Source: an uncultured Gemmatimonadales bacterium
GTDB taxonomy: Bacteria > Gemmatimonadota > Gemmatimonadetes > Longimicrobiales > RSA9
Length of the DNA: 64,000 nucleotides
NCBI GenBank assembly: GCA_963783305.1
Contig: CAWAMW010000015.1
Span: forward strand, 55,767-119,766
Reading direction: 5' to 3'
This document shows, piece by piece, positions 4,351-54,030 of the stretch (the stretch's first letter is position 1; every line of letters starts with the position of its first letter). The position numbers were made by a program, and so were the translations under genes. A model generated the notes under the pieces. It saw only the letters and a program-made list of their open reading frames with translations. It had not been told where the DNA came from and searched no databases.

Positions 4351-4442
4351 TGCCACCTCCAGGTTGGGATAGGGGATAGGCAAGGATGCAGCGGGGGAGG
4401 CGCCACCGAAAGACTTTTGTAGGAGACGCGAGGCCCCTCTGG

Positions 4443-4521
4443 GATTGTCAGCAGGAACTGTGGGCAGGGTGAACGGGCCCCCCGCATGTCCGCATGGGTC
4501 CAACATTTCCTGCTGACAATC
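4443..4521. repeat. perfect 15-bp inverted repeat GATTGTCAGCAGGAA / TTCCTGCTGACAATC with 49-nt spacer
   Basis: Read directly: arms at 4443..4457 and 4507..4521. It lies between the hemolysin-III stop (4577) and the start of the 3787..4350 gene (both minus strand). Confidence 0.9.
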
Positions 4522-4576
4522 TACGAGGATTCGGTGGGCCGACCGGGGCTGGCTTCTGCCCTCCCCTCTCCACCGA

Positions 4577-5203
4577 CTACAGCTGCGCGATGGCCACGAA
4601 GTGACAGGCGCTCCCCGCAAGCACGAACACGTGCCACGCCACATGAGCGTACCGAACCCGATCCATGTGGTACACGAGCGTGCCCACACTGTAGATCAGC
4701 CCTCCGGCGGCGACCCACGCGAGCGTCACGTAGCTCAGCCTCTCCACTAGCGGCACGAACGCCAGGAGGGCCAGCCAGCCCATGCCGAGATACAGCCCCG
4801 TCGACAGCCGGGGGAACCGGTCCAGGAGCGTCAGCTTGTACACCACACCGCCCACCGCGAGCGCCCACGCAAGGCCGAACATGAACCAGCCCCACGCCCC
4901 CCGAAGCGGCAGCAGGAGGAAGGGCGTGTAACTGCCGGCGATGAAGAGGAAGATCGCCGAATGGTCCATCACTCGGAGGCGCCACTTCAGGTCAAGCCTC
5001 GTGACACCGTGGTACAGCGTCGAAATTGTGTAGAGCGCCACCATTGTGATGCCGTAGATGGCCATGCTCAGAATGCGCCAGCCATCCCCAGCCCGCAGCG
5101 CGTCGAGGATCAGGTATCCAGCGCCCACAGCTGCCAGGGCCGCCCCGATACCGTGCGTGATGCTGTGGAAAAGCTCTTCGTGTCTCGTATAGAAATCGGT
5201 CAT
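4577..5203 (-). CDS. hemolysin III / PAQR family membrane protein
   Basis: ATG at 5203 gives MTDFYTRHEELFHSITHGIGAALAAVG .. YHMDRVRYAHVAWHVFVLAGSACHFVAIAQL. It has 7 TM segments and the conserved His residues typical of the HlyIII/YqfA family. Confidence 0.85.
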   Translation of the reverse strand: MTDFYTRHEELFHSITHGIGAALAAVGAGYLILDALRAGDGWRILSMAIYGITMVALYTISTLYHGVTRLDLKWRLRVMDHSAIFLFIAGSYTPFLLLPLRGAWGWFMFGLAWALAVGGVVYKLTLLDRFPRLSTGLYLGMGWLALLAFVPLVERLSYVTLAWVAAGGLIYSVGTLVYHMDRVRYAHVAWHVFVLAGSACHFVAIAQL

Positions 5204-5335
5204 CTCTATGTTCCCTGGTCCGCCATCCTCCCATGCAACCGCGGGGCCAGCCTTCCGTTTCGTCCGCTGAAACCCGCCCCCGCCCACCGCCGTACGGCCA
5301 ACCGATCACGATACCTGAACTGGAGCACCGCCCGC

Positions 5336-6544
5336 ATGTCCACCGGCCGTATATACGTCAAGCACGCTCTGACCCGCTCTCTGGCGCGGGTGCTCCTCAG
5401 CACGGCTTTCCTCGGACCGACCTTCCTCGGACCGACCTTCCTCGGACCGACGCTCCTGGGATCCGCACTGCTCATCACCGCGCCGGCGCGGGCGACCGCG
5501 CAGGGCGTAGAGGTGACCGTCGGGGACGTGGGCCTGGGGATCGGGCCGGTACCCCGGATCGACGGGCTCCGCGTGAACTTTCGCGACGACTATCGCCTGG
5601 AGAGAGTCCGTGGCGTCAACGCCACCATCTGGGCTCCCCATGATGACATCCAGGGGGACGTCTACGGGCTCGCGCTCGGCCTCCCCCTCACCGGCGCGCG
5701 TAACCTTGCAGGCCTCGGACTGGGCGCGGGCATCGCCGTTCACGGCGACTTTCGAGGCATCGCGGTTGCTCCCATCGGCATGGGTAGTGGCGGCGACCTC
5801 GGCGGCGTGGTCATAACCGGGATCGGTGTGGGCGCGGGAAACGACGCGCACGGGATCGTCGTGGGCGGGATCGGCGTCGGCGCGGGAAACCGCCTGTCGG
5901 GTATCGCCGTCGGAGGAGTGGGTGTCGGAGCCGGGAACAGCGCCACGGGAGTACTGGTGGGGGGCGTGGGAGCGGGCGTCGGCAACAGCATGCGCGGGAT
6001 CGCCCTGGGCGGCCTCGGCGCGGGTGTGGGCAACAGCATGACGGGCCTCCTCGTCGGCGGCCTCGGCGTGGGAACGGGCAGCGACCTCACGGGGATCGGA
6101 GTGGGCGGCCTCGGGGTCGGCGTCGGCAACCAAATCACCGGAATCGCGCTCGCCGGGGGGGGGATCGGCGCGGGCAACGGGATAAAGGGCATCGCTCTGG
6201 CCGGCCTTGGCATCGGGTCGGGCGGCCACCTCCGCGGCCTCTCGGTGGCAGGGCTGGGCATCGGCGCGCCCCGCATCACCGGCCTCGCCGCGGCGCTGGC
6301 CGTCGGTGGGCAGGACATTCACGGGCTGGTGCTCGCCCCCGCCTATTTCCGACTGGAGGAAGACGGGCAGCTTCGGGGAGCCGCAGTGAGCGCGTTCAAT
6401 GATTTACGGGGGGAGCAGCGCGGACTGGCGATCGGCCTCGTCAATATCGCCCACGAGCTTCATGGGCTGCAGATCGGCATCATCAACATCGCCCGGAACA
6501 AGGATTCGTTCCCCATCATGCCCATATTCAACTACCACCCGTAG
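5336..6544 (+). CDS. secreted glycine-rich tandem-repeat (solenoid-like) protein
   Basis: ATG at 5336. A long signal peptide ends ..APARATAQG. About 11 consecutive 16-residue repeats of the form xGIxVGGxGVGAGNxx span roughly aa 125-315 (nt 5708..6281). The C-terminal GLAIGLVNIAHELHGLQIGIINIARNKDSFPIMPIFNY resembles GxQxGxxN surface-repeat proteins (family assignment from memory, uncertain). Confidence 0.7.
   Translation: MSTGRIYVKHALTRSLARVLLSTAFLGPTFLGPTFLGPTLLGSALLITAPARATAQGVEVTVGDVGLGIGPVPRIDGLRVNFRDDYRLERVRGVNATIWAPHDDIQGDVYGLALGLPLTGARNLAGLGLGAGIAVHGDFRGIAVAPIGMGSGGDLGGVVITGIGVGAGNDAHGIVVGGIGVGAGNRLSGIAVGGVGVGAGNSATGVLVGGVGAGVGNSMRGIALGGLGAGVGNSMTGLLVGGLGVGTGSDLTGIGVGGLGVGVGNQITGIALAGGGIGAGNGIKGIALAGLGIGSGGHLRGLSVAGLGIGAPRITGLAAALAVGGQDIHGLVLAPAYFRLEEDGQLRGAAVSAFNDLRGEQRGLAIGLVNIAHELHGLQIGIINIARNKDSFPIMPIFNYHP
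5408..5452 (+). repeat. 15-bp tandem repeat x3 (TTCCTCGGACCGACC) inside the signal-peptide coding region
   Basis: Copies at 5408..5422, 5423..5437 and 5438..5452 (last base differs). They encode FLGPT-FLGPT-FLGPT(L). Confidence 0.9.
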
Positions 6545-21089: not shown

Positions 21090-21343
21090 GTTCGTCTCTC
21101 CTTTTGTCATGCGCAGGGGCAAGTAGCTTGCCACTCGAGCGGCCGGGGGGTTGACATGCGACGGTTTTCCCGCGAGGCTTGTGTCTGGCGAACAGTCCGG
21201 CCGAGTCCGGACACCAGCAACGTGAGGACCTGGGCGCTTACCGCTCGGGTCTTTTTTGTTGGCCGCCAGAAAGAGGTGAGTTCGAGAGGTACGGAAATAC
21301 CGTTACCCCGGGAGCACCACAAGAACACAGGGAGTACGGTATT

Positions 21344-21550
21344 ATGCGTACCAAGGGAACCGTGAAGTGGTTCAACGACGAGAAGGGCTTTGGCTTCATC
21401 ACGCCTGAGGACGGCAGCAAGGACTGCTTCGTCCATCACAGCGCGATCCAGGCCCAGGGCTTCAAGAGCCTGTCCGAGGGACAGGCCGTCGAGTTCGACG
21501 TCGTGCAGGGCCAGAAGGGCCCCGCCGCGGAGAACGTCCACGCGGTCTGA
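21344..21550 (+). CDS. cspA: cold-shock protein, CspA family
   Basis: [36 protein letters not shown].. contains the RNP1 (KGFGFI) and RNP2 (VFVHH-like) motifs. It is 68 aa, with a long leader of about 200 nt as usual for csp genes. Confidence 0.95.
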
Positions 21551-21599: not shown

Positions 21600-21632
21600 G
21601 CCGCCCCGGTGATCACCGGGGCGGCTGTTTCG
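21600..21632 (+). terminator. rho-independent-like terminator after cspA
   Basis: A perfect 24-nt palindrome CCGCCCCGGTGATCACCGGGGCGG (21601..21624) is followed by CTGTTTCG. Confidence 0.6.
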
Positions 21633-27386: not shown

Positions 27387-29252
27387 TCAGGGCAGCTCGG
27401 GCTCTACGTCCAGACCGCCGTCCGCCGCCCCCATCGCCGCCCCCATCGCCGCCGCCATGTACACAAGGTTGGCGCTGCCATCCATGATCGGCTCGTTGGT
27501 GGAGTAGTCGCCGAAGTCGTCGTGGTAGACGATAGGGCCGGTATTGAGGGCCTCGTAGCGGTCGGGCCGGTAGAGTTGGATGTACATGAGGTTCTCGTAG
27601 ATCGACCGATAGACGGGGCCGTCGACGAGGCCGCCGAGCTGAGTGGCCGGCCCCATCTCCCGAGCGATCACCGAATGCGGGTCGTCGGTGCTGTTCCCGT
27701 TGCCCGGGTAGCCGATGACCATGGATGCGCCCCACGGATTCGCCCCGAAGATCCAGTCGATCGCGGCCTGCTCATACGTCCGGAACGTGGTGTCACCGGT
27801 CATCCGCCGGTACAGGTAGGCCTGTGTGGCGAAAGAAGCCATCAGGTCGTTGGAGCACCAGATGAACGGAATGCCGATCCGAAAGCCGTTGTCGGCCCGC
27901 TCCGCCACCCGCTCCAGACCCTCGCGGTAGAAGTCGGACATGAGGCGCCGCACCTCCGGATCGCCCTCTCTCCACACCTGGTAGTGGCCGTAATTGTGCC
28001 AAGGGTACCACTGGTAGTGCCGCGCCGTGTCCTGCCCCATCCAGGGGGTGACGGGCTCCTCGCGGGCGTACTCCACGGCCTCCCGCAGATAGCGCTCCTC
28101 GCCGGTCAGGTCGTGGAGCTGAGCGGCCGCAAGCTCCATGTCATCGACCCAATTGTCCTCCTCATAGAAATACGGAGCGCGAGCCGGGGCGGTCTGGCAC
28201 ACGCCCGGGTGGCGCCGACCCAGCTCGTAGGCGGAGAGCGCCCGGGAGCGCAGCGTGTCCGCGAGCGTCGGGTCCCGATCGGCGATGAGGACGGCGCCGA
28301 GAGCCATGGCCGATGTGAATTTGCCGGCCGTGGACGCGAGCCCATCCGAGCGGTTCTGGTGCTCGAAGAGGCCCTGCGGCCGGCCGGTGCACGGGTACAC
28401 GGGCCGGTACCCGCCCTTGCCCCAGCCGTAATCGGCGGAGTCGGTGGTGGGTAGAGACCAGGTGAGGTGGTCTCGGTCGTCGGCGATCTGGTTCAGCAGA
28501 AGGTCAGGCTCGGGATGCATGGCCACCAGCCACTCCAGTCCGTGGCGGGCCTCGTCCAGCACGTCCGGAATCCCGTTCGAGCCTGGCGTTCCATCCGCAC
28601 GGTGGAGGTCACCGAACGCGTCGGGGTGATCGCGGTAGGCGGCGAGAAGCGAATAGGTGGCGGTGGCGGAGGTGGCAACGTACTGGAGGTAGTCGGCGGC
28701 GTCGTGCCAGCCGCCCGCGACCGGAATGAACTCCCCCGCCCTGGGATGATCCACGAGGATCCCGTCGGTCCGGTGGTGGACGGAATCCATGAAGAGCGGG
28801 TTGTATCCCGACCGCTGCTGCCGCATGTACATGAGGAGCGTATCGGCCGCGCCGGCGTACGCGTCCGCCGCGACCCGGACCCGCCGGGAGGTCACACCAC
28901 CCGCGGACAGCCGGTAGGTTCCCGGGCGTCGCAGCGACGAGAAGTCCAGCCGATGGGTCACGGCGCAGGGGCCGAACCCCGGCGCCCGCTCCGCGGGACC
29001 CTCGAGTGCCACGCTCCCGTCCTCGTCGACAACCGAGAACGAGTCGACCTCCTCCTCCTCGATCGAGCAGACCACGGCCACCTTCGGACCGTCCGGGAGG
29101 TAGCCGACCTGGTTGACCCTGATGAAGCTCGTTACGGCCGTATGGGCGCCCGCGTCAACGGGAGCCGCGGTCGCGGGATCCGCCGGTGGTGCGCACGCGC
29201 TCATGGCCAGGAGCGCCATGAGGCAGGTGCGTGAGACAGAGCGCTGCTTCAC
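27387..29252 (-). CDS. glycoside hydrolase family 9 (endoglucanase-like) lipoprotein with N-terminal Ig-like domain
   Basis: GTG at 29252 overlaps the upstream stop (GTGA). The lipobox is LLAMSAC. GGWHDAADYLQY matches the GH9 GGWYDAGD motif. DELAAAQLHDLTG and the C-terminal NEPIMDGSANLVY also fit GH9. Confidence 0.8.
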   Translation of the reverse strand: MKQRSVSRTCLMALLAMSACAPPADPATAAPVDAGAHTAVTSFIRVNQVGYLPDGPKVAVVCSIEEEEVDSFSVVDEDGSVALEGPAERAPGFGPCAVTHRLDFSSLRRPGTYRLSAGGVTSRRVRVAADAYAGAADTLLMYMRQQRSGYNPLFMDSVHHRTDGILVDHPRAGEFIPVAGGWHDAADYLQYVATSATATYSLLAAYRDHPDAFGDLHRADGTPGSNGIPDVLDEARHGLEWLVAMHPEPDLLLNQIADDRDHLTWSLPTTDSADYGWGKGGYRPVYPCTGRPQGLFEHQNRSDGLASTAGKFTSAMALGAVLIADRDPTLADTLRSRALSAYELGRRHPGVCQTAPARAPYFYEEDNWVDDMELAAAQLHDLTGEERYLREAVEYAREEPVTPWMGQDTARHYQWYPWHNYGHYQVWREGDPEVRRLMSDFYREGLERVAERADNGFRIGIPFIWCSNDLMASFATQAYLYRRMTGDTTFRTYEQAAIDWIFGANPWGASMVIGYPGNGNSTDDPHSVIAREMGPATQLGGLVDGPVYRSIYENLMYIQLYRPDRYEALNTGPIVYHDDFGDYSTNEPIMDGSANLVYMAAAMGAAMGAADGGLDVEPELP

Positions 29253-37771: not shown

Positions 37772-38905
37772 ATGGCCGCCGCGACTCCGGTCGACCCCGA
37801 TGGCCTGCTCGAGTACTCCGTGGTCTTCACCGACCGCTCGCTCAACCACATGTCCGCGCGGTTCCAGCGCGTCATGCGGGACATCTCCGAGACGCTCCGG
37901 AACACATACGCCGCGGCCGCCGTCGTGGTGGTCCCCGGCGGGGGCACCTACGGCATGGAGGCCATCGCCCGCCAGTTCGCCCACGACCGCAGCTGCCTCG
38001 TGGTCCGAAACGGCTACTTCAGCTATCGCTGGAGCCAGATCTTCGACACGGGCAGGATCACGGACAGCGTCGTCGTGCTGAAGGCGAAGCCGGCGGCTGC
38101 GGGGCCCCGAGCGGCGTGGGCGCCGCCGCCACTGGCGGCGACGCTCGCGGCGATCCGGGAGCACGAGCCCGACCTGGTCTTCGCGCCCCATGTGGACACG
38201 TCCTCCGGGATCATCCTCCCGCCCGACTACCTGCGTGCCCTCGCGGACGCCGTCCACGCCCACGGCGGCCTCTTCGTCCTGGACTGCGTGGCGTCCGGCG
38301 CGGTGTGGGTCGACATGCGCGAGAGCGCCGTGGATATCCTGCTCTCGGCGCCGCAGAAGGGGTGGAGCGCGCCGCCGTCCTCGGCTCTCATCATGCTCGG
38401 CGAGGAGGCCGCCGCTCGGTTGGAGCAGACGCACAGCAGCAGCTTCGCCTGCGATCTGCGACGGTGGCGGGAGATCATGCGCGCCTACGAGGAGGGCGGA
38501 CACGCCTACCACGCCACCCTCCCCACCGACGCACTCACCCGCTTCCGCGACGCCATGCTCGAGACCGTCGAGATGGGCCTGAACGAGGCGGAACGGCGGC
38601 AGTGGGAGCTCGGAAACCGTGTCCGCGACCTCCTGGCGCAGCACGGGTTCCCCAGCGTCGCCGCACCTGGCTTCGAGGCGCCCGGCGTGGTGGTCAGCTA
38701 CACCGACGATCCGCTCATCCAGAACGGAAAGAAGTTCGCCGAGGCCGGCCTCCAGATCGCCGGCGGCGTGCCGCTAATGTGCGGCGAGCCCGACGACTTC
38801 CGCACCTTCCGACTGGGCCTCTTCGGCCTGGACAAGTGGGAGGACGTGGACGGCAGCGTCCGGAAGGTGGAGGCGGCGCTCGAGGAGGTGGGCCGGACGG
38901 GATAG
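37772..38905 (+). CDS. class V aminotransferase (alanine-glyoxylate / serine-pyruvate / AEP transaminase-like)
   Basis: ATG at 37772 follows GAGAGG. ..FTDRSLNHMS.., GGGTYGMEA, FVLDCVASG and SAPQKGWSAPP (PLP lysine) fit the family. The 5' extension of the track ORF overlaps the Smr gene. Confidence 0.8.
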   Translation: MAAATPVDPDGLLEYSVVFTDRSLNHMSARFQRVMRDISETLRNTYAAAAVVVVPGGGTYGMEAIARQFAHDRSCLVVRNGYFSYRWSQIFDTGRITDSVVVLKAKPAAAGPRAAWAPPPLAATLAAIREHEPDLVFAPHVDTSSGIILPPDYLRALADAVHAHGGLFVLDCVASGAVWVDMRESAVDILLSAPQKGWSAPPSSALIMLGEEAAARLEQTHSSSFACDLRRWREIMRAYEEGGHAYHATLPTDALTRFRDAMLETVEMGLNEAERRQWELGNRVRDLLAQHGFPSVAAPGFEAPGVVVSYTDDPLIQNGKKFAEAGLQIAGGVPLMCGEPDDFRTFRLGLFGLDKWEDVDGSVRKVEAALEEVGRTG

Positions 38906-38935
38906 CAGAGCCGGATCGCAGCCCAGCACAGCTGC

Positions 38936-39076
38936 GGACCAGGTTCCATATTCCACTTTACGCAGTTCGGGCCCCCAAGCACGGGCAGCGCCGCGGACCG
39001 CGGCAGGGAAGGATCAAGGTCGGGCCGGCCATCAGCATAGCTGAATGGGTCGAAAGTGGAATATGGAACCTGGTCC
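38936..39076. repeat. 141-bp element with perfect 24-bp terminal inverted repeats (MITE-like or long-hairpin RNA/terminator)
   Basis: GGACCAGGTTCCATATTCCACTTT (38936..38959) and its exact reverse complement AAAGTGGAATATGGAACCTGGTCC (39053..39076) flank a 93-nt GC-rich spacer. The spacer contains the palindromes GCCGCGG-A-CCGCGGC (38990..39004) and GGCCGGCC (39023..39030). It lies between two convergent genes. Confidence 0.9.
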
Positions 39077-39100
39077 GGTACGTTATGGTCCGGTACGTTA
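39071..39100. repeat. 15-bp tandem duplication TGGTCCGGTACGTTA x2
   Basis: Copies at 39071..39085 and 39086..39100. The first copy overlaps the outer 6 nt of the right inverted-repeat arm, and the second ends inside the stop region of the 39098 gene. Confidence 0.9.
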
Positions 39101-39676
39101 CACCGACCCCACCACCGCTTCCCCCTCCCCCGCGGTGAAATACACCGTCTCCTGCGACCGCTCGGGGAACCGGACGAACTTCATGACGTTGCGCTGATCG
39201 TCGAACAGCTCGAAGAGGAGTGTGTTGCGGACGGTGAATCGCGCGATCGGGGCGTCGGCCTGATACCGCACGACCACCCACCAGGCGGGGTGCCGGTCCA
39301 GCTGGTCCTCGCCGCTCTCCACGATCGAGGGCGTCAGCAGAGCGCCGTCCAGCTCGACCCGCAGGTGGTCGCGCAGGTAGCGGAGGACCAGCGCGTCGGC
39401 CTCGGCGCCCCGCGTCAACGTAACCATGTCCGCTCCCAGGAGGGGACCCAGCGCCTGCTCCAGCTCGTGCTTGAAGAAGCGCAGCCGTCCCGCCATGACG
39501 CTCCCCTCGATGGCTATGTCGGCCGTAACGGTGTGGAGGTCGTGAACGGGCAGCAGCTCCGACGGGCCCGCGTCCGCCGGCGCCCCTCCTGCTCCCGACG
39601 TGGAGAGCAGGAGGAGCAGCGGCGGAAGGAGCCGCCGGACCCCGGCGTGTCCGGGGCTACGGGGTCGCGCTCGCAT
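39098..39676 (-). CDS. DUF6702-like protein (commonly paired with M1 peptidases)
   Basis: After a signal peptide, HDLHTVTADIAIEGSVMAGRLRFFKHELEQAL and ..RNTLLFELFDDQRNVMKFV parallel the HxFHxS..IE and ..LFDEQKNVV patterns of DUF6702 proteins (from memory). It is immediately downstream of the M1 peptidase. The start at ATG 39676 is uncertain. Confidence 0.65.
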   Translation of the reverse strand: MRARPRSPGHAGVRRLLPPLLLLLSTSGAGGAPADAGPSELLPVHDLHTVTADIAIEGSVMAGRLRFFKHELEQALGPLLGADMVTLTRGAEADALVLRYLRDHLRVELDGALLTPSIVESGEDQLDRHPAWWVVVRYQADAPIARFTVRNTLLFELFDDQRNVMKFVRFPERSQETVYFTAGEGEAVVGSV

Positions 39677-43324: not shown

Positions 43325-43428
43325 TTACCCGCTCGCGTGCCACACCGCAAGGCCGCGCTGCACGCACACGAAAACGCCGGGGCGGTCCCTCGACCGCCCC
43401 GGCGTCTTCGACTCTCCGCATGCAGCGG

Positions 43429-46302: not shown

Positions 46303-46338
46303 GGTGAGGCCGGCCTGACGAATCAGACCGGCCTCACC
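46303..46338 (-). terminator. candidate stem-loop terminator after the MCP gene (no U-tract)
   Basis: GGTGAGGCCGG (46303..46313), a 14-nt loop, then CCGGCCTCACC (46328..46338), about 40 nt downstream of the 46378 stop. Confidence 0.4.
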
Positions 46339-46377: not shown

Positions 46378-48486
46378 CTAGAACCGCCGCAGCACCTCGT
46401 CCTCCTCGAACGGGATCAACGCGGCCGGCTCCGACGCACCGTGGCCGTTACCCACCGGCCGCACCGACACTTTTGCGCCCCGCTTCCCACCGTTCCCACC
46501 GTTCCCACCGTTCCCACCGTTGCCACCGTTCGGCCGGTGTCGCGCGACGGGTTCACCGCTCGCCAGCCGGAATTGCCCGACGAGGCCCGTCATCCGCTGC
46601 GCCTGCCCGCTCAGCTCCTCCGCGGCGCTGGCGCTCTCTTCCGCGCTGGCCGCCGACCGCTGGGTCACGGCGTTCATCTCCTCGACCGCGTTGTTGATCT
46701 GACCGACGCCTTCGGTCTGCTGCTCGCTCGCGGCGGCGATCTCGGCCATGACTTCCGTCACCCGCGCCACGCCCTTCTGGATCTCGTCCAGCTGCGAAAC
46801 GACCTCGGCCTGGACCACCACGCCCTCCTCGGAGCGCTCCACGCTCTGCTCGATGAGCCGCGACGTCTCCTTGGCCGCCTCGGCCGACCGCATGGCCAGG
46901 TTCCGGACCTCTTCCGCCACCACCGCGAACCCCTTCCCCGCCTCACCCGCTCGCGCCGCTTCCACCGCAGCGTTCAGCGCCAGCAGGTTGGTCTGGAACG
47001 CGATCTCGTCGATGGTCTTCACGATCCGCGCTGTGGCGTCGCTCGACTCCTTGATCCGGTTCACCGTGAGCGACAGGCGCTGCATTGCCTCGGCACCCTT
47101 CTCCGTGCTGTTCGACGCCGCCTGTGAGAGGCCCCGCGCCTCGTTGGCGTTGCCGGAGTTCTGGGTGGCCATGGACGCCAACTCCTGCAGCGAGCTCGAG
47201 ATCTCCTCCAGGCTCGACGCCTGCTCGCTCGCGCCCTCCGCCAGGTTCTGGCTGCCGCCTGCGATCTCGTCCGACGCGCTCGAGACCTGCTCGCTCGCGG
47301 CGGACACCTCGCCCAGCGCCTCCTGGAGGTTGTCCACGGCCTGGTTCAGCGAACGCTTGATCTTGAGGTAATCACCACGATAGTCGCCCTTCATCCGGGC
47401 GGTCAGGTCGCGCTCCGCCAGCGCCTCCAGCGTGCTCGACGCCTCATCGAGCGGCGTGACCACGGCCTCCAGCAGACCGTTCAGCCCCGCCACCATTTCG
47501 CCGTACGCCCCCTCGATACCCGTCCCGTCCGCGCGCTTCGACAGGTCGCCGTTGCCCGCCGCCTTCACCAGCTCCCGCGCCTCGCCCACCACGCGCTTCA
47601 GCACCTGCTGCGCTTCCTCGAACCGACGCGCTGTGCCCCCCGTGCTCTCGATGATGCCGTCCACCGCCCGCGCCAGCGAGCCGATCTCCTCCGTCAGGTC
47701 GAGCTCCAGCGGCTCCGTGCCATAATCGACCCGGTTCTCCAGGTCGCCCCGCACGATGGCCGCGGCGCCCGCGCCCAGGTTCGTAATGTCCCGCTGCTGG
47801 AGCGCCTGCACCCGCTCCACCACGAGCTGGATCCGCCGGGTCACCCACCCCGAGATGAACAGTGCGATCCCGGCGGCGATCAGTATGCCCAGGACCAGGA
47901 TCCCGATCATGATGGCGCGGATCCGAAGATAGAGCGCGGTGTTAGCCTCGGCCATCTGCTTCGCGCCCTCCAGCCGCGCTTCCGCAATGGCGTCTAGCGC
48001 CGCCGAGTACACGTCACCAGTACGACCTGCCTCGCCGAGCATCAGCGCGATCGCCTCCTCCCGGCGCTCCTGGCGCACCAGGTCCGCCACTTCGCGGGCG
48101 GGGGCGAGGTACGCCTGGCGCGCCTCCAGCAGGTCGCCGAACAGCGCCCGATCCCTATCCGTGCTGAGGGTCGCCTCGTACTGGTCCTGGAACGCGGAGG
48201 CCCGCTCGGAGAGCGCTGTCAGCTCCTGGGAGTAGGCCGCCCGCTGAGCCGAATCCTCCGCGAGGGCGAGGTCGCGCAGCACCACGCGGTAGCCCTCCAA
48301 CGTGACGTTCCACTCACCTACCAGGCCCAGTCGAACGGTCTCGTCCTCGTAGAGCGCGGTGTCCGCCGAGCCCAGCGTCCGCAGGCTCCAGATCGTCAAC
48401 GTCCCCGTGAGGACCAGGAGGCCCGTGACCAGACCGAAGCCCGAGAGGAGCTTGGCCCGCAATGACAGATTGTCGAACGACTTCAT
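46378..48486 (-). CDS. methyl-accepting chemotaxis protein (4HB-type sensor, HAMP, MA domain)
   Basis: ATG at 48486 follows GGAGGG. After an N-terminal TM and a four-helix-bundle periplasmic region comes a second TM. The conserved signalling hairpin is [40 protein letters not shown]. The C-terminal tail has NGGNGGNGGNGGNGG and ends ..EEDEVLRRF. Confidence 0.9.
46484..46528. repeat. 9-bp tandem repeat x5 (TTCCCACCG; last copy TTGCCACCG) encoding (GGN)n in the MCP tail
   Basis: Copies at 46484, 46493, 46502, 46511 and 46520, read directly. Confidence 0.9.
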
Positions 48487-50302: not shown

Positions 50303-50335
50303 CCCGGGGACGGCCCGGGGACGGCCCGGGGACGG
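50303..50335. repeat. 11-bp perfect tandem repeat x3 (CCCGGGGACGG) plus a degenerate 4th copy, in a divergent intergenic region
   Basis: Copies at 50303..50313, 50314..50324 and 50325..50335, then CCCGGGCGTCGG. They lie between the divergent starts at 50132 (-) and 50469 (+). Confidence 0.9.
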
Positions 50336-50393
50336 CCCGGGCGTCGGTCCGGCGCGGCGGCCGGAGGGGATGCGAGCCGTCCGCAAGCGCTTC

Positions 50394-50421: not shown

Positions 50422-50468
50422 GATCCCTGCCCCCTGCCTCATCCTCCTACATCCGAAGGGCGGTCGCG

Positions 50469-50903
50469 ATGAAGCGTACGAGTGCAGTAGTCCTGTTGCT
50501 GTCGGCTGTCGTCCTGACCGGCTGCTACCACGCCACGGTAGACACGGGTCTGCGGCCGAGCGGTGAAGTAGTCGAGAAGCTTTGGGCGCATGGCTTCGTG
50601 TACGGTCTGGTCCCCCCCTCCGAGATCGACGTCGCCGCCGAATGCCCGGATGGGGTGGCCCGTGTCGAAACGCAGCTGTCGTTCCTGAATCAGCTCGCCA
50701 GTGCGTTGACATTCGGCCTTTACACCCCGATGACCATTAGCGTCGCATGCGCTGCGGGACCGGACCGCGCGGCGATGAACGCGGGGAATACCTTCAATGT
50801 GATCGGCTCGCGACCCAGCCCCGAGACCATCGACCGGGCGATCCGCCTGGCCATCGAGACGCGTCAGAACACGTACCTCAATTTCGTGGACGCCACGGAA
50901 TAG
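50469..50903 (+). CDS. Bor/Iss family lipoprotein
   Basis: The lipobox is LSAVVLTGCYHATVDTG. ..HGFVYGLVPPSEIDVAAECPDGVARVETQLSFLNQLASALTFGLYTPMTISVAC follows the Bor-family pattern (GL.P....D....C..G...V.T..S.......LT.GIY.P....V.C). Confidence 0.75.
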   Translation: MKRTSAVVLLLSAVVLTGCYHATVDTGLRPSGEVVEKLWAHGFVYGLVPPSEIDVAAECPDGVARVETQLSFLNQLASALTFGLYTPMTISVACAAGPDRAAMNAGNTFNVIGSRPSPETIDRAIRLAIETRQNTYLNFVDATE

Positions 50904-50967: not shown

Positions 50968-51221
50968 GGCTGCGAGCCCGGACGAAGTCGTCTGAAGCGG
51001 CGCCGGCCCACCAGGTCCAAACACTGCTCCGTTTCCTGGAAGCGGCGGTCGTTTTCCGCCTTTGCTCTCCACAGGACCGCGATGCCCGCAGCGAGCTCTT
51101 CGAACACGATCCCCCCGATGTCCATCCGCTGAACCGGAGCCGCGCCTCCCGGTTCGATCCGCCGCCGGGCTGCCGGAACGACGAACGCCGGGGCGGCCTC
51201 GTCACCGCGCCCGGCGTCGTC

Positions 51222-51298
51222 AGATCTTAGATCCTAGATCTTAGGTCTTAGCTCTCAGATCTCCGATCCCAGATCCCAGTTCTCGGATCCCAGCTCAC
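51222..51298. repeat. heptanucleotide tandem array, 11 units, consensus AGATCYY, with 7 GATC sites
   Basis: The units are agatctt agatcct agatctt aggtctt agctctc agatctc cgatccc agatccc agttctc ggatccc agctcac. GATC sites are at 51223, 51230, 51237, 51258, 51265, 51272 and 51286, so all spacings are multiples of 7. The last unit contains the nrdJ stop codon (51295..51297). Confidence 0.9.
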
Positions 51299-53844
51299 CC
51301 ACACTCGCTGTATCCGCAGCTCAGGCACTTCACGCACCCTTCCGCGAACTGGAGCCCGCTGGAGCACTCGGGGCAGGTGCCGATGAAGGCGTCTCCCGGG
51401 TCGTAGTAGTCGGCCTGTGGCTTCGGCTGCGCGGCGTGCTTGGGCTGCGCGATGGGCGCGGGGGTGGCGGCGGGCGCGGCGGCGGCGCCGCCGAGGCCGA
51501 GCTCCTCCTGGATCCCTTCCTTCTCGTCCAGGTGCAGCTGGAGCACCTGTGCGATGGCGTCGGGCATGGAGAGGACCTTGTTGGGTCCGAACCCGACCGC
51601 GCGGTCGCAGGAGATGCCGCGGAGCTGCGTGACCACGTCGGGCATGGGGATGCCGCTCCGGAGGGCGAGGGATAGGAGGCGACCGATGGCCTCGGCGTGG
51701 GCCATGGCGGCGCCGCCGGCCTTGCCGAGGGTGGCGAAGACCTCGAACGGCTGGCCCTCCTCGTCCTCGTTGACGGTGATGTAGAGCTCACCGAGGGGGC
51801 TCCGGATCTTGCGGGTGGTGCCGTGGAGCGCCTGGGGGCGGGTCCGCTTGTGGAGCCGCCGCTGGTGCTTGACCTCGAGCTCCCGGAGCGTCTTCTCCGT
51901 CTCGTCCAGCTCGTGGACCAGGCGGTGGTTCTCCTCGCGGGCGTCGGCCAGGGCGGCCTCGAGGTCGGCGGTCCTGGCGGACTTCTCGGTGGTAGCGGCG
52001 TCCTTGCCGGTCTTGCCGGTGCTGAGCACCTGCATGGGGCGGCAGCCGTCACGGTAGACGGTGACGCCCTTGCAACGGAGCTCGTGGGCCTTGAGGTAGA
52101 TCTCGCGGACGTCGTCCTCGGTGGCCTCGTTGGAGAAGTTGCACGTCTTGCTGATGGCGCTGTCGGTGTGCTCCTGGAAGGCGGCCTGCATGCGGATGTG
52201 CCAGTCGGGGGCCACGTCGTGGGACGTGACGAACACGCGCTGGACGGCCTCGGGCACCTCGTCGAAGTGGATATGGCCCTCGGCGGCGATGCGCTCCATC
52301 AGGTCCTCGGAGTACCAGCCCTGCTCGGCGGCGATCCGGACGAAGTCCTTGTTCACGTCCGCCATCATGGAGCCCGCCTGGTTGCGCATGAACGCCACGG
52401 CGAAGAGGGGCTCGATCCCGCCGGAGCAGTCGGCGAAGATGGAGATGGTGCCGGTGGGCGCTACGGTCGTGATGTTGGAGTTCCGGAGCTTCCGCATGGG
52501 GCGGACGCGCTTGCCGTCGACCTTCGCGGCGGTCCTGTCCGGCCCCCAGATGGAGTGCTTCCAGGCGGGGAAGGTGCCGCGGGTCTCCGCCAGCTTCTCG
52601 CTGGCCACGCGGGACTCCTCGCTGATGAAGCCCATGACCTGCCGGGCGATGTCGATGGCCTCGTCGCTGTCGTACGGGACGCCCACGCGGACCAGCAGGT
52701 CGGCCCAGCCCATGATGCCCAGGCCGATGCGGCGGATCGTCTGCGCCAGCTTCGTGATCTCGTCCAGCGGGTAGTTGTTGGCGTCGATGACGTTGTCGAG
52801 GAAGTGCGTGGCGAGGTGGACGGTGTTGCGGAACTCGTCCCAGTCGATCTTCTCGTCGAAGGGCGCGTCGGCATTCACATCGTCCTTTACGAACATGCCG
52901 ACGTTCACGCTGCCGAGGTTGCACACGTCGTAGGGCAGGAGCGGCTGCTCGCCGCACGGGTTGGTCGCCTCGTAGCTGCCCAGCTTCGGGACCGGGTTGT
53001 AGCGGTTGGCCTCGTCGATGAAGAAGACGCCCGGCTCGCCCGTGGCCCACGCGCCCTCGATGATCAGGTCGAAGATCTCGTTCGCGTCATCCGTCCCCAC
53101 CACCTCGCCGTTGCGCGGCGTCTTCAGCTCGTACTTCTCGCCCTTCTTCACCGCCTCCATGAACGCGTCCGTGATGGCCACGCTGATGTTGAAGTTGGTG
53201 ATCTGCGTCACATCGCTCTTGCACGTGATGAAGTCCCGGATGTCCGGGTGGTCCACGCGCAGGATCCCCATGTTCGCGCCCCGGCGCGTGCCACCCTGCT
53301 TCACCACCTCCGTGGAGCCGTCGTAGAGCTTCATGAAGCTGACGGGTCCGCTGGCCACGCCCATGGTGCTCTTCACCACATCGTTCACCGGACGCAGACG
53401 GCTGAAGCTGAACCCCGTGCCGCCGCCCGACTGGTGCACCAGCGCCATGCTCCGCAGCGTGTCGTAGATGCCGTCCTTGCCGTTCGACAGCGCGTCCTCC
53501 ACCGGCAGCACGAAGCACGCGCTCAGCTGGCCCAGCGGACGCCCGGCGTTCATGAGCGTGGGGCTGTTCGGCTCGAACAGCCGGTGCGTCATCAGCCGGT
53601 AGAACTCACGCGCCAGCTGATCGACCCCGCCCTCGCTCGCCCCGTAGCTGGTGTCCACGTCCGCTATGGTACGCGCCACGCGCCAGAACATCTCCTCCGG
53701 CTCCTCGATGGCCTCGCCAGCCTCGTTCTTCTTGAGGTAGCGCTTGCCCATGATGATGCGGGCGTTCTCACTCATGTCCGCCCGAGGGAGGTCCTCGGGG
53801 AGCACGTCGGCCGGAGCTGGAGCGTCGGCGGGCTTCGGGGTCAT
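51295..53844 (-). CDS. nrdJ: class II (adenosylcobalamin-dependent) ribonucleotide reductase
   Basis: ATG at 53844 follows AGGAAGAGGA. MGKRYLKK..EMFWRVARTIA, ..PNSPTLMNAG..LSACFVLPVEDA.., ..GGGTGFSFSRLRP.. and ..GGTRRGANMGIL fit the family. It is a single-chain protein of about 850 aa. The C-terminal Cys-rich tail is CPECSSGLQFAEGCVKCLSCGYSECG. Confidence 0.9.
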   Translation of the reverse strand: MTPKPADAPAPADVLPEDLPRADMSENARIIMGKRYLKKNEAGEAIEEPEEMFWRVARTIADVDTSYGASEGGVDQLAREFYRLMTHRLFEPNSPTLMNAGRPLGQLSACFVLPVEDALSNGKDGIYDTLRSMALVHQSGGGTGFSFSRLRPVNDVVKSTMGVASGPVSFMKLYDGSTEVVKQGGTRRGANMGILRVDHPDIRDFITCKSDVTQITNFNISVAITDAFMEAVKKGEKYELKTPRNGEVVGTDDANEIFDLIIEGAWATGEPGVFFIDEANRYNPVPKLGSYEATNPCGEQPLLPYDVCNLGSVNVGMFVKDDVNADAPFDEKIDWDEFRNTVHLATHFLDNVIDANNYPLDEITKLAQTIRRIGLGIMGWADLLVRVGVPYDSDEAIDIARQVMGFISEESRVASEKLAETRGTFPAWKHSIWGPDRTAAKVDGKRVRPMRKLRNSNITTVAPTGTISIFADCSGGIEPLFAVAFMRNQAGSMMADVNKDFVRIAAEQGWYSEDLMERIAAEGHIHFDEVPEAVQRVFVTSHDVAPDWHIRMQAAFQEHTDSAISKTCNFSNEATEDDVREIYLKAHELRCKGVTVYRDGCRPMQVLSTGKTGKDAATTEKSARTADLEAALADAREENHRLVHELDETEKTLRELEVKHQRRLHKRTRPQALHGTTRKIRSPLGELYITVNEDEEGQPFEVFATLGKAGGAAMAHAEAIGRLLSLALRSGIPMPDVVTQLRGISCDRAVGFGPNKVLSMPDAIAQVLQLHLDEKEGIQEELGLGGAAAAPAATPAPIAQPKHAAQPKPQADYYDPGDAFIGTCPECSSGLQFAEGCVKCLSCGYSECG

Positions 53845-53976
53845 AACTCTGTCCTCTTCCTGGGGCTGATGGTACGAGCCGCTACGTGGATAACTTCCGC
53901 TGTCGCGCTGAGATCGACAGGATCGCGCAGGCCGCTCCATGCAGCGGACGCCCCTTGGGGTCGGGCCGCCTGAAAT

Positions 53977-54030
53977 GCGCTACATGTTGTGCGGGGTAAG
54001 GAACATGCCACCATATGTTGTGGGTGTCAA
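53977..54030 (-). promoter_or_regulatory. two NrdR-box-like sites phased 31 bp apart, overlapping a TTGACA -35 element upstream of nrdJ
   Basis: On the gene strand, box 2 (54008..54023) is CCACAACATATGGTGG and box 1 (53977..53992) is GCACAACATGTAGCGC. By my own alignment they match the remembered NrdR consensus acaCwAtATaTwgtgt at about 12/16 and 10/16 positions. The shared core ATGTTGTG recurs exactly 31 bp apart. TTGACA (reverse complement of 54025..54030) abuts box 2. Confidence 0.45.

Follow-up and report, generated by a model that had tools for sequence, protein, structure and literature searches.

A single-copy 143-bp foldback between two convergent genes of an uncultured Gemmatimonadota genome, most probably the young relic of an insertion or an accident of replication

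A perfect inverted repeat lies between two convergent genes in a 64-kb stretch of DNA (64,000 nucleotides, hereafter the window) from a metagenome-assembled, Longimicrobiales-like Gemmatimonadota genome, and we asked whether it is a mobile element, a signal at the 3' ends of the two genes or an accident of replication. The arms are complementary at 25 of 25 positions and have 93 nt between them, giving a unit of 143 bp. The initial annotation of this DNA had described perfect 24-bp arms and a 141-bp element; the perfection and the 93 nt between the arms were borne out by our measurements, while the lengths had to be corrected to 25 nt per arm and 143 bp. It had also placed the element between two convergent genes, and the intergenic spacer (38906-39097) does separate the stop of an aminotransferase gene on the plus strand from the stop of a DUF6702 gene on the minus strand. 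Without settling on any of them, it had offered several readings, namely a MITE, a bidirectional terminator or RNA-stabilising hairpin, a site for protein binding, and a small RNA with structure. The features of the locus are as follows, with coordinates counted from the start of the window.

37772-38905, plus strand: gene for a class V aminotransferase of the alanine-glyoxylate type, with its stop 29 nt upstream of the left arm
38906-38934, no strand: left part of the intergenic spacer, upstream of the left arm
38935-38959, no strand: left arm, CGGACCAGGTTCCATATTCCACTTT, 25/25 complementary to 39053-39077
38960-39052, no strand: interior spacer of 93 nt, G+C 0.70, with the palindromes GCCGCGGACCGCGGC and CAGCATAGCTG
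39053-39077, no strand: right arm, AAAGTGGAATATGGAACCTGGTCCG, the exact reverse complement of the left arm
39071-39100, no strand: tandem duplication, TGGTCCGGTACGTTA x 2.0, perfect
39098-39676, minus strand: DUF6702 gene; stop codon at 39098-39100; the recorded protein has 132 aa (39098-39496)

The foldback is genuine, far above chance, non-coding and unlike the genome in the composition of its ends. Among perfect inverted repeats with ≤ 500 nt between the arms, the longest in the window measured 25 nt, compared to 12-15 nt in 30 dinucleotide shuffles of it, and a 24-mer of the arm was found at these two sites only when ≤ 3 mismatches were allowed (0.00 expected, from 100 shuffles). The early estimate that such a match is far beyond chance therefore holds, as does the remark that the core of the arm is AT-rich for this genome: G+C is 0.48 in the arm and 0.39 in its 18-nt core, versus 0.70 in the spacer and 0.69 in the window. 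Each arm contains a periodic TTCCA repeat, which in the left arm has a period of 7 nt (TTCCA..TTCCA). The unit is short (under about 500 bp), and its reading frames are open merely as G+C-rich DNA predicts. A search of its six-frame translation against 5.8 billion protein clusters, which was meant to catch copies of the element overlapped by spurious gene calls, gave no match at E ≤ 10.

Perfect inverted repeats of at least 16 nt were otherwise absent from the window and from ten related loci, with the exception of a 26-bp palindrome (GCCGCCCCGGTGATCACCGGGGCGGC, 21600-21625). A cold-shock protein gene (21155-21550, plus strand) ends about 50 nt before this palindrome, which is probably its terminator hairpin. 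A second long intergenic inverted repeat, which is imperfect, was found at 4436-4528, with 29-nt arms of 83% complementarity, a 35-nt loop and a near-perfect 15-nt core (GATTGTCAGCAGGAA / TTCCTGCTGACAATC); its G+C is below that of its surroundings, and it adjoins a HlyIII-family gene (4577-5305, minus strand), for which it could be an operator or an RNA hairpin. Another stretch of lower G+C (0.66) holds an ORF at 50424-50903 which matches the Lambda_Bor lipoprotein family PF06291 (E 5e-19).

We then considered the two flanking genes. The closest named homologues of the aminotransferase come from Longimicrobiales/Gemmatimonadota MAGs, and an identical protein is already on record from contig_54970 of ENA ERZ25039549 (279.5 kb) and from a contig of 475.9 kb. 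A local Pfam scan of this protein yielded no family at E ≤ 0.001; among its homologues at 70-79% identity many have a precomputed match to PF00266 (Aminotran_5) and others have none, so this subfamily sits at the edge of the Pfam model. For the DUF6702 gene, an upstream ATG at 39676 extends the protein to 192 aa, which agrees with the N-terminus of a relative. Between the right arm and its stop are 20 nt, which shrink to 5 nt when the tandem duplication is left out of the count.

The duplication itself had been reported as a 15-bp tandem repeat overlapping the right arm, and TGGTCCGGTACGTTA is indeed present exactly twice at 39071-39100. The final 7 nt of the right arm are shared with the first copy, and the second copy ends in TTA, the TAA stop of DUF6702; the result is a second in-frame TAA 15 nt beyond the DUF6702 stop, and no other effect of the duplication is predictable. 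Perfect short tandem repeats are common in the window, including 15 nt x 2.9 at 5408-5451 and 11 nt x 3.5 at 50303-50341, and we therefore regard the doublet as ordinary slippage. Because it includes 7 nt of the arm, the duplication must be younger than the arm if the foldback arrived as a whole unit.

Some of the other repeats in the window deserve a record of their own. The array at 5408-5451 (TTCCTCGGACCGACC x 2.9) is inside a long ORF (4751-6544, plus strand) which has no Pfam match, and a repeat of 9 nt x 5.3 is found at 46484-46531; together with the repeat at 50303-50341 these show that recent slippage duplications are frequent in this genome. A 7-nt array, TCAGATC x 10.6 (76% matches), occupies 51220-51293, directly past the stop end of a ribonucleotide reductase gene (51295-53979, minus strand).

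The same organism has been assembled a second time (ENA ERZ25039549, contig_54970): over 21 kb that contig matches the window at 99.92% identity, and it includes an identical 166-nt stretch of the locus in the same orientation. Between positions 27775 and 48902 of the window the two assemblies differ at 18 positions, of which roughly 12 are at or beside CATC/GATG, often in the form CATCG/CGATG. This pattern suggests long-read consensus noise at a modified or methylated motif, and it hints in addition at an active methyltransferase of that specificity. The two assemblies are probably not fully independent; an artefact is unlikely nonetheless.

To place the foldback in time we compared the orthologous intergenic regions of the closest relatives available, as had been recommended, and found the element to be missing from all three. 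The closest relative (L036, JGI 3300039533) has 89.9% and 89.1% nucleotide identity on the two flanks and the same gene order as the window (Peptidase_M1, then DUF6702, convergent with the aminotransferase). Its DUF6702 stop is at the homologous position (CTA on the plus strand, that is TAG on the strand of the gene), and its intergenic spacer is only 61 nt long, without arms and without a notable hairpin (z -0.5). The second relative (L005, 85-87% nucleotide identity) also lacks the element and has 876 bp in place of 215 bp of the window; the 876 bp encode a Polysacc_deac_1 domain fused to DUF6702 and are followed by a 16-nt spacer. The third (L037, 79%) lacks the element and has a different neighbour gene. 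Three close relatives thus show three different states at this site, which marks it as variable, and by parsimony the foldback is a recent, lineage-specific gain in the lineage of the window. There are no mismatches in the 50 arm positions or in the 30-nt duplication, whereas the flanking genes have diverged by 10% from the nearest relative, so the foldback is much younger than the split from L036.

The spacer of L036 has no significant similarity to that of the window (z about 0 against dinucleotide shuffles), and the only stretch common to the two is CAGCTGCGGA (38929-38938). With a low gap cost the 61 nt can be aligned as if collinear with the interior of the element, but we dropped this alignment since dinucleotide shuffles score equally well (z -0.2 to +0.5); its gaps probably coincide with the arms simply because these are richer in A+T.

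The fusion in L005 is worth describing separately. At L005:4473-5897 (minus strand, 86% amino acid identity) DUF6702 runs in frame into a NodB-type Polysacc_deac_1 domain, giving a protein of 474 aa, and the fused part begins exactly at the position of the stop codon of the window and of L036. No such DUF6702-deacetylase fusion was present among the 59 homologues listed. The idea that DUF6702 in the window is truncated, with the element marking a lost deacetylase domain, was rejected, because standalone proteins of 160-220 aa are normal among these 59 homologues and the stop position is common to the window and L036.

We searched for further copies at several scales. Neither the window nor about 70 kb of loci from related Gemmatimonadota contained a second copy of the arm (≤ 6 mismatches) or of its core (≤ 2 mismatches). 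A 20-mer of the arm had two matches in 185,579 GTDB species-representative genomes, both attributable to chance and both in coding sequence of unrelated low-G+C MAGs (an uncultured Desulfobacula and a Saprospiraceae bacterium). In JGI metagenomes the paired-core pattern had no matches, while an 18-mer of the arm had 8 single-arm matches barely longer than the seed, one of them inside an ORF on a contig of 66% G+C; a 16-mer had 12 chance matches in IMG/VR. The chance matches were mostly on low-G+C contigs, and those which we inspected were within coding sequence. Searches with blastn against plasmids and phages returned sub-significant fragments only. It should be noted that exact-seed searches of this kind overlook copies below about 90% identity. 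Dispersed copies, part of the evidence by which the initial annotation would have recognised a MITE, were thus not found in any of these sets. Since the foldback is single-copy in the DNA searched and absent from the relatives, what remains is a local orphan hairpin, which is also where the reasoning of that annotation leads.

Genes and target sites gave no sign of mobility either. Pfam scans and the recorded gene calls for about 46 ORFs of the window included no transposase, recombinase or reverse transcriptase, in agreement with the earlier statement that the window has no transposase. Single-arm searches for a parent insertion sequence with matching ends gave chance matches only, and diverged ends would escape such searches. 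An exhaustive scan over all element boundaries found no flanking direct repeat of at least 5 nt. The only way for a target-site duplication to be concealed would be as a palindromic TA or ATAT in the centre of the arm, which the sequence permits and does not prove; on that reading a 30-bp palindrome, CGGACCAGGTTCC-ATAT-GGAACCTGGTCCG, would have been present beforehand and would supply the outer 13-14 nt of the arms, and the insert would be 113 bp long with 9-nt terminal repeats in an ancestral spacer of 64 nt (compared to 61 nt in L036). We also considered and dropped a retron, an integron attC site, a dif/Xer site and a guide RNA of the IS200/IS605 or IS110 type, as the window contains no reverse transcriptase, integrase or transposase gene.

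The predicted fold of the whole unit is very stable and is closed by the 25-bp stem. As RNA it has a minimum free energy (MFE) of -85.2 kcal/mol on the plus strand (z -5.4) and -85.4 kcal/mol on the minus strand (z -5.3), and as single-stranded DNA one of -49 kcal/mol (z -8.6). For the 93-nt interior alone the RNA values are -33.9 and -31.7 kcal/mol on the plus and minus strands (z +0.5 and +0.8). As the interior folds no better than shuffles, all of the structural signal comes from the arms, and the two palindromes which had been pointed out inside the spacer, although present, are unremarkable. A small structured RNA, one of the possibilities first raised, is not supported by these values or by Rfam: a scan of the whole window at gathering thresholds gave 0 matches, and a permissive scan of the locus gave best scores of 21.8 and 20.1 bits at E above 1 (the plant microRNA precursor MIR1151 and the lncRNA GNAS-AS1). 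A search for tRNA and tmRNA genes found none.

The explanation that accounts best for these observations, and which we put forward tentatively, is an orphan MITE-like or IS-relic foldback which passively forms a 25-bp stem in both 3' UTRs. Under it a non-autonomous element, either a MITE-like unit or an internally deleted insertion sequence, would have inserted in the short spacer between the aminotransferase and DUF6702 genes, and a later 15-bp replication slippage at its right edge would have copied 7 nt of the arm together with the DUF6702 stop. Transposition as the route of arrival is what we infer from the form, the site and the age of the unit: 143 bp with 25/25 terminal repeats of low G+C and no credible ORF, a site without the element in L036, further variation at this site among the three relatives, a gain of 131 nt in length compared to L036, a strong hairpin on either RNA strand and as DNA, and the youth implied by arms and duplication without mismatches. 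A MITE in the strict sense, as initially suggested, is thus favoured by a small, non-coding unit with perfect terminal repeats, by the low G+C of its ends and by the L036 site without the element, and disfavoured by the failure to find a target-site duplication or, in the sets searched, dispersed copies. The same points weigh against an insertion relic in general: no flanking direct repeat of at least 5 nt for any boundaries, no second copy in the window or the 70 kb of related loci, single chance matches only for exact 18- to 20-mers of the arm in public collections and nothing in plasmids or phages, no counterpart of the six-frame translation among the protein clusters, and no transposase in the window. 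The copy number of MITEs has been reported to go down to 1 per genome (PMC10969869).

Among described elements, the Correia (CREE/NEMIS) MITEs of Neisseria are similar in being about 100-160 bp long, non-coding and bounded by terminal repeats of roughly 25-26 bp, in their intergenic or 3'-UTR position and in a presence which varies between related genomes. They differ in having > 100 copies, compared to the one seen here in a different phylum, Gemmatimonadota. As further differences, no target-site duplication, whether TA or another, is visible around the foldback, it contains neither an IHF-like nor a promoter-like site that we could find, and it showed no sequence similarity to any plasmid, phage, genome or metagenome record searched.

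The present activity of an insertion relic would probably be passive. Read-through of either convergent gene would allow the arms to pair into a 25-bp perfect RNA stem, which would act as an RNase III substrate or as a block to 3' exonucleases and not as a canonical terminator. This prediction is made by analogy with Correia, REP and ERIC elements (PMC10969869; PMC2649163). When transcribed, the terminal repeats of Correia elements pair into a long duplex which is cleaved by RNase III (PMC10969869, PMC2649163), and according to a review MITEs in the 3' regions of genes undergo RNase III cleavage at their terminal repeats or change mRNA decay (PMC10969869). By the same analogy, the predicted function would be identical if the foldback had arisen by template switching.

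Such an origin is the strongest alternative to an insertion relic, and we consider it possible though somewhat unlikely. A local template switch would have copied a pre-existing arm as its reverse complement about 93 nt away, and slippage would then have added the duplication. Template switching is documented to produce perfect stems of tens of bases by one mutation (PMC8794818; PMC10710096), and the hairpins that it leaves resemble the foldback in being perfect reverse complements of tens of nucleotides near their source, single-copy, lineage-specific and without a target-site duplication (PMC8794818, PMC10710096). Perfect arms, a single copy and the lack of both a target-site duplication and a transposase are all to be expected from such an event. 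A second replication-type event, the perfect 15-nt duplication, overlaps the end of an arm; each arm carries the 7-nt periodic TTCCA repeat; the G+C of the spacer (0.70, versus 0.69 for the genome) is what native DNA would have; and the first 4 nt of the left arm are inside the 10-mer common to the spacer of the closest relative. However, template-switch hairpins are defined by an ancestor with one arm, whereas the L036 spacer is not alignable here and its collinearity with the interior is not significant (z about 0). The source arm has to be postulated, in that the low-G+C core (0.39) has no counterpart in the spacer of the relative or in the rest of the window, and the composition of the arms looks foreign to the genome. 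A 25-nt copy and a 15-nt duplication would moreover account for only 40 of the 131 extra nucleotides compared to L036.

A further proposal concerns function and is compatible with either origin, namely that the foldback is a selected RNA 3'-end element of both transcription units, acting as a bidirectional terminator that needs no U tract, as a stabiliser of mRNA or as a processing site for RNase III. It lies precisely between the two convergent genes, with one stop 29 nt before it and the other 20 (or 5) nt after it, which is suggestive, as is the extremely stable stem predicted on both strands. RNase III needs a duplex of roughly 20 bp, and the 25-bp perfect stem exceeds this. Parallels exist in Correia and REP elements (PMC10969869; PMC2649163; bioRxiv 10.64898/2026.03.23.713779). 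Against selection, the structure is not conserved: the hairpin of L036 is unremarkable at z -0.5 and the two other relatives lack the element, which suggests that it is not, or not yet, a selected feature. The initial suggestion of a long hairpin in both 3' UTRs thus survives as a physical prediction and fails as a conserved structure. The interior is unstructured and Rfam is empty for this locus. That the foldback is a canonical intrinsic terminator finds no support in its ends, as no T tract follows the stem on either strand and a scan of 38400-39600 gave 0 terminator-like sites. Intrinsic bidirectional terminators share its convergent position and a stem on both strands, but they have a G+C-rich stem of 5-20 bp and a loop of 3-8 nt, whereas the foldback has a 25-bp stem, a multibranched interior of 93 nt and no U tract. 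It is also unlike the terminator-like hairpins elsewhere in the window (43369-43410 and 46303-46338), which have G+C-rich stems of 16-19 bp and 4-nt loops. Taken together, we consider a selected 3'-end element improbable.

We attach a similarly low probability to a more novel identity, in which the foldback would be the first copy seen of an undescribed family of foldback mobile elements in Longimicrobiales-type Gemmatimonadota, REPIN-like without target-site duplication, mobilised by an enzyme encoded elsewhere and seeding RNase III-sensitive stems in 3' UTRs, or would be a newborn template-switch hairpin. REPINs, the RAYT-mobilised REP doublets, are comparable in consisting of two inverted units of 20-25 nt with a spacer of tens of nucleotides which form a long hairpin, and in being extragenic, often between convergent genes, and without a target-site duplication (PMC3116915, PMC3337134). 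The arms of the foldback are nevertheless not palindromic REP units and have no internal palindrome beyond ACC.GGT, the window contains no RAYT, and no population of copies was found, compared to tens to hundreds of REPINs per genome.

It is very improbable that the foldback is an inverton, in which a site-specific recombinase from another locus would invert the 93 bp between the 25-bp repeats. Inverted repeats of similar length around about 100 bp, and perfect repeats around a short segment in general, are the defining geometry of invertons, and continued recombination would keep the arms identical. However, there is no recombinase in the 64 kb and no promoter-like site inside the element, a switchable promoter between two 3' ends would drive antisense RNA only, both assemblies have the same orientation, and the relatives have no related site. 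Weakest of all is an artefact of long-read assembly or consensus calling, which is scarcely credible: the 18 differences in 21 kb between the assemblies, mostly linked to CATC/GATG, do suggest consensus noise from modified bases, but the 166-nt stretch is identical in two assemblies whose contigs are of different lengths, the flanking reading frames are intact, and we know of no consensus-error pattern that combines a 25-bp inverted repeat, a 93-bp unique spacer and an exact 15-bp duplication.

The single-copy foldback is therefore most likely a young insertion relic or a replication accident. It is of a known kind, a short MITE-like foldback or a template-switch hairpin, and can be assigned to no described family; at present it is known from one orphan copy, for which we found neither a family nor a conserved structure, nor any evidence of function or mobility. 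In practice it is chiefly useful for marking the strain and as a warning against taking every perfect inverted repeat for a MITE. Were it the product of template switching, bacteria would provide in it a clear case of a perfect 25-bp stem made in one step. Were it mobile, it would show how a mobile element in nature adds a long double-stranded RNA stem to two converging mRNAs, and would give early access to the mobilome of uncultured Gemmatimonadota, which has hardly been studied.
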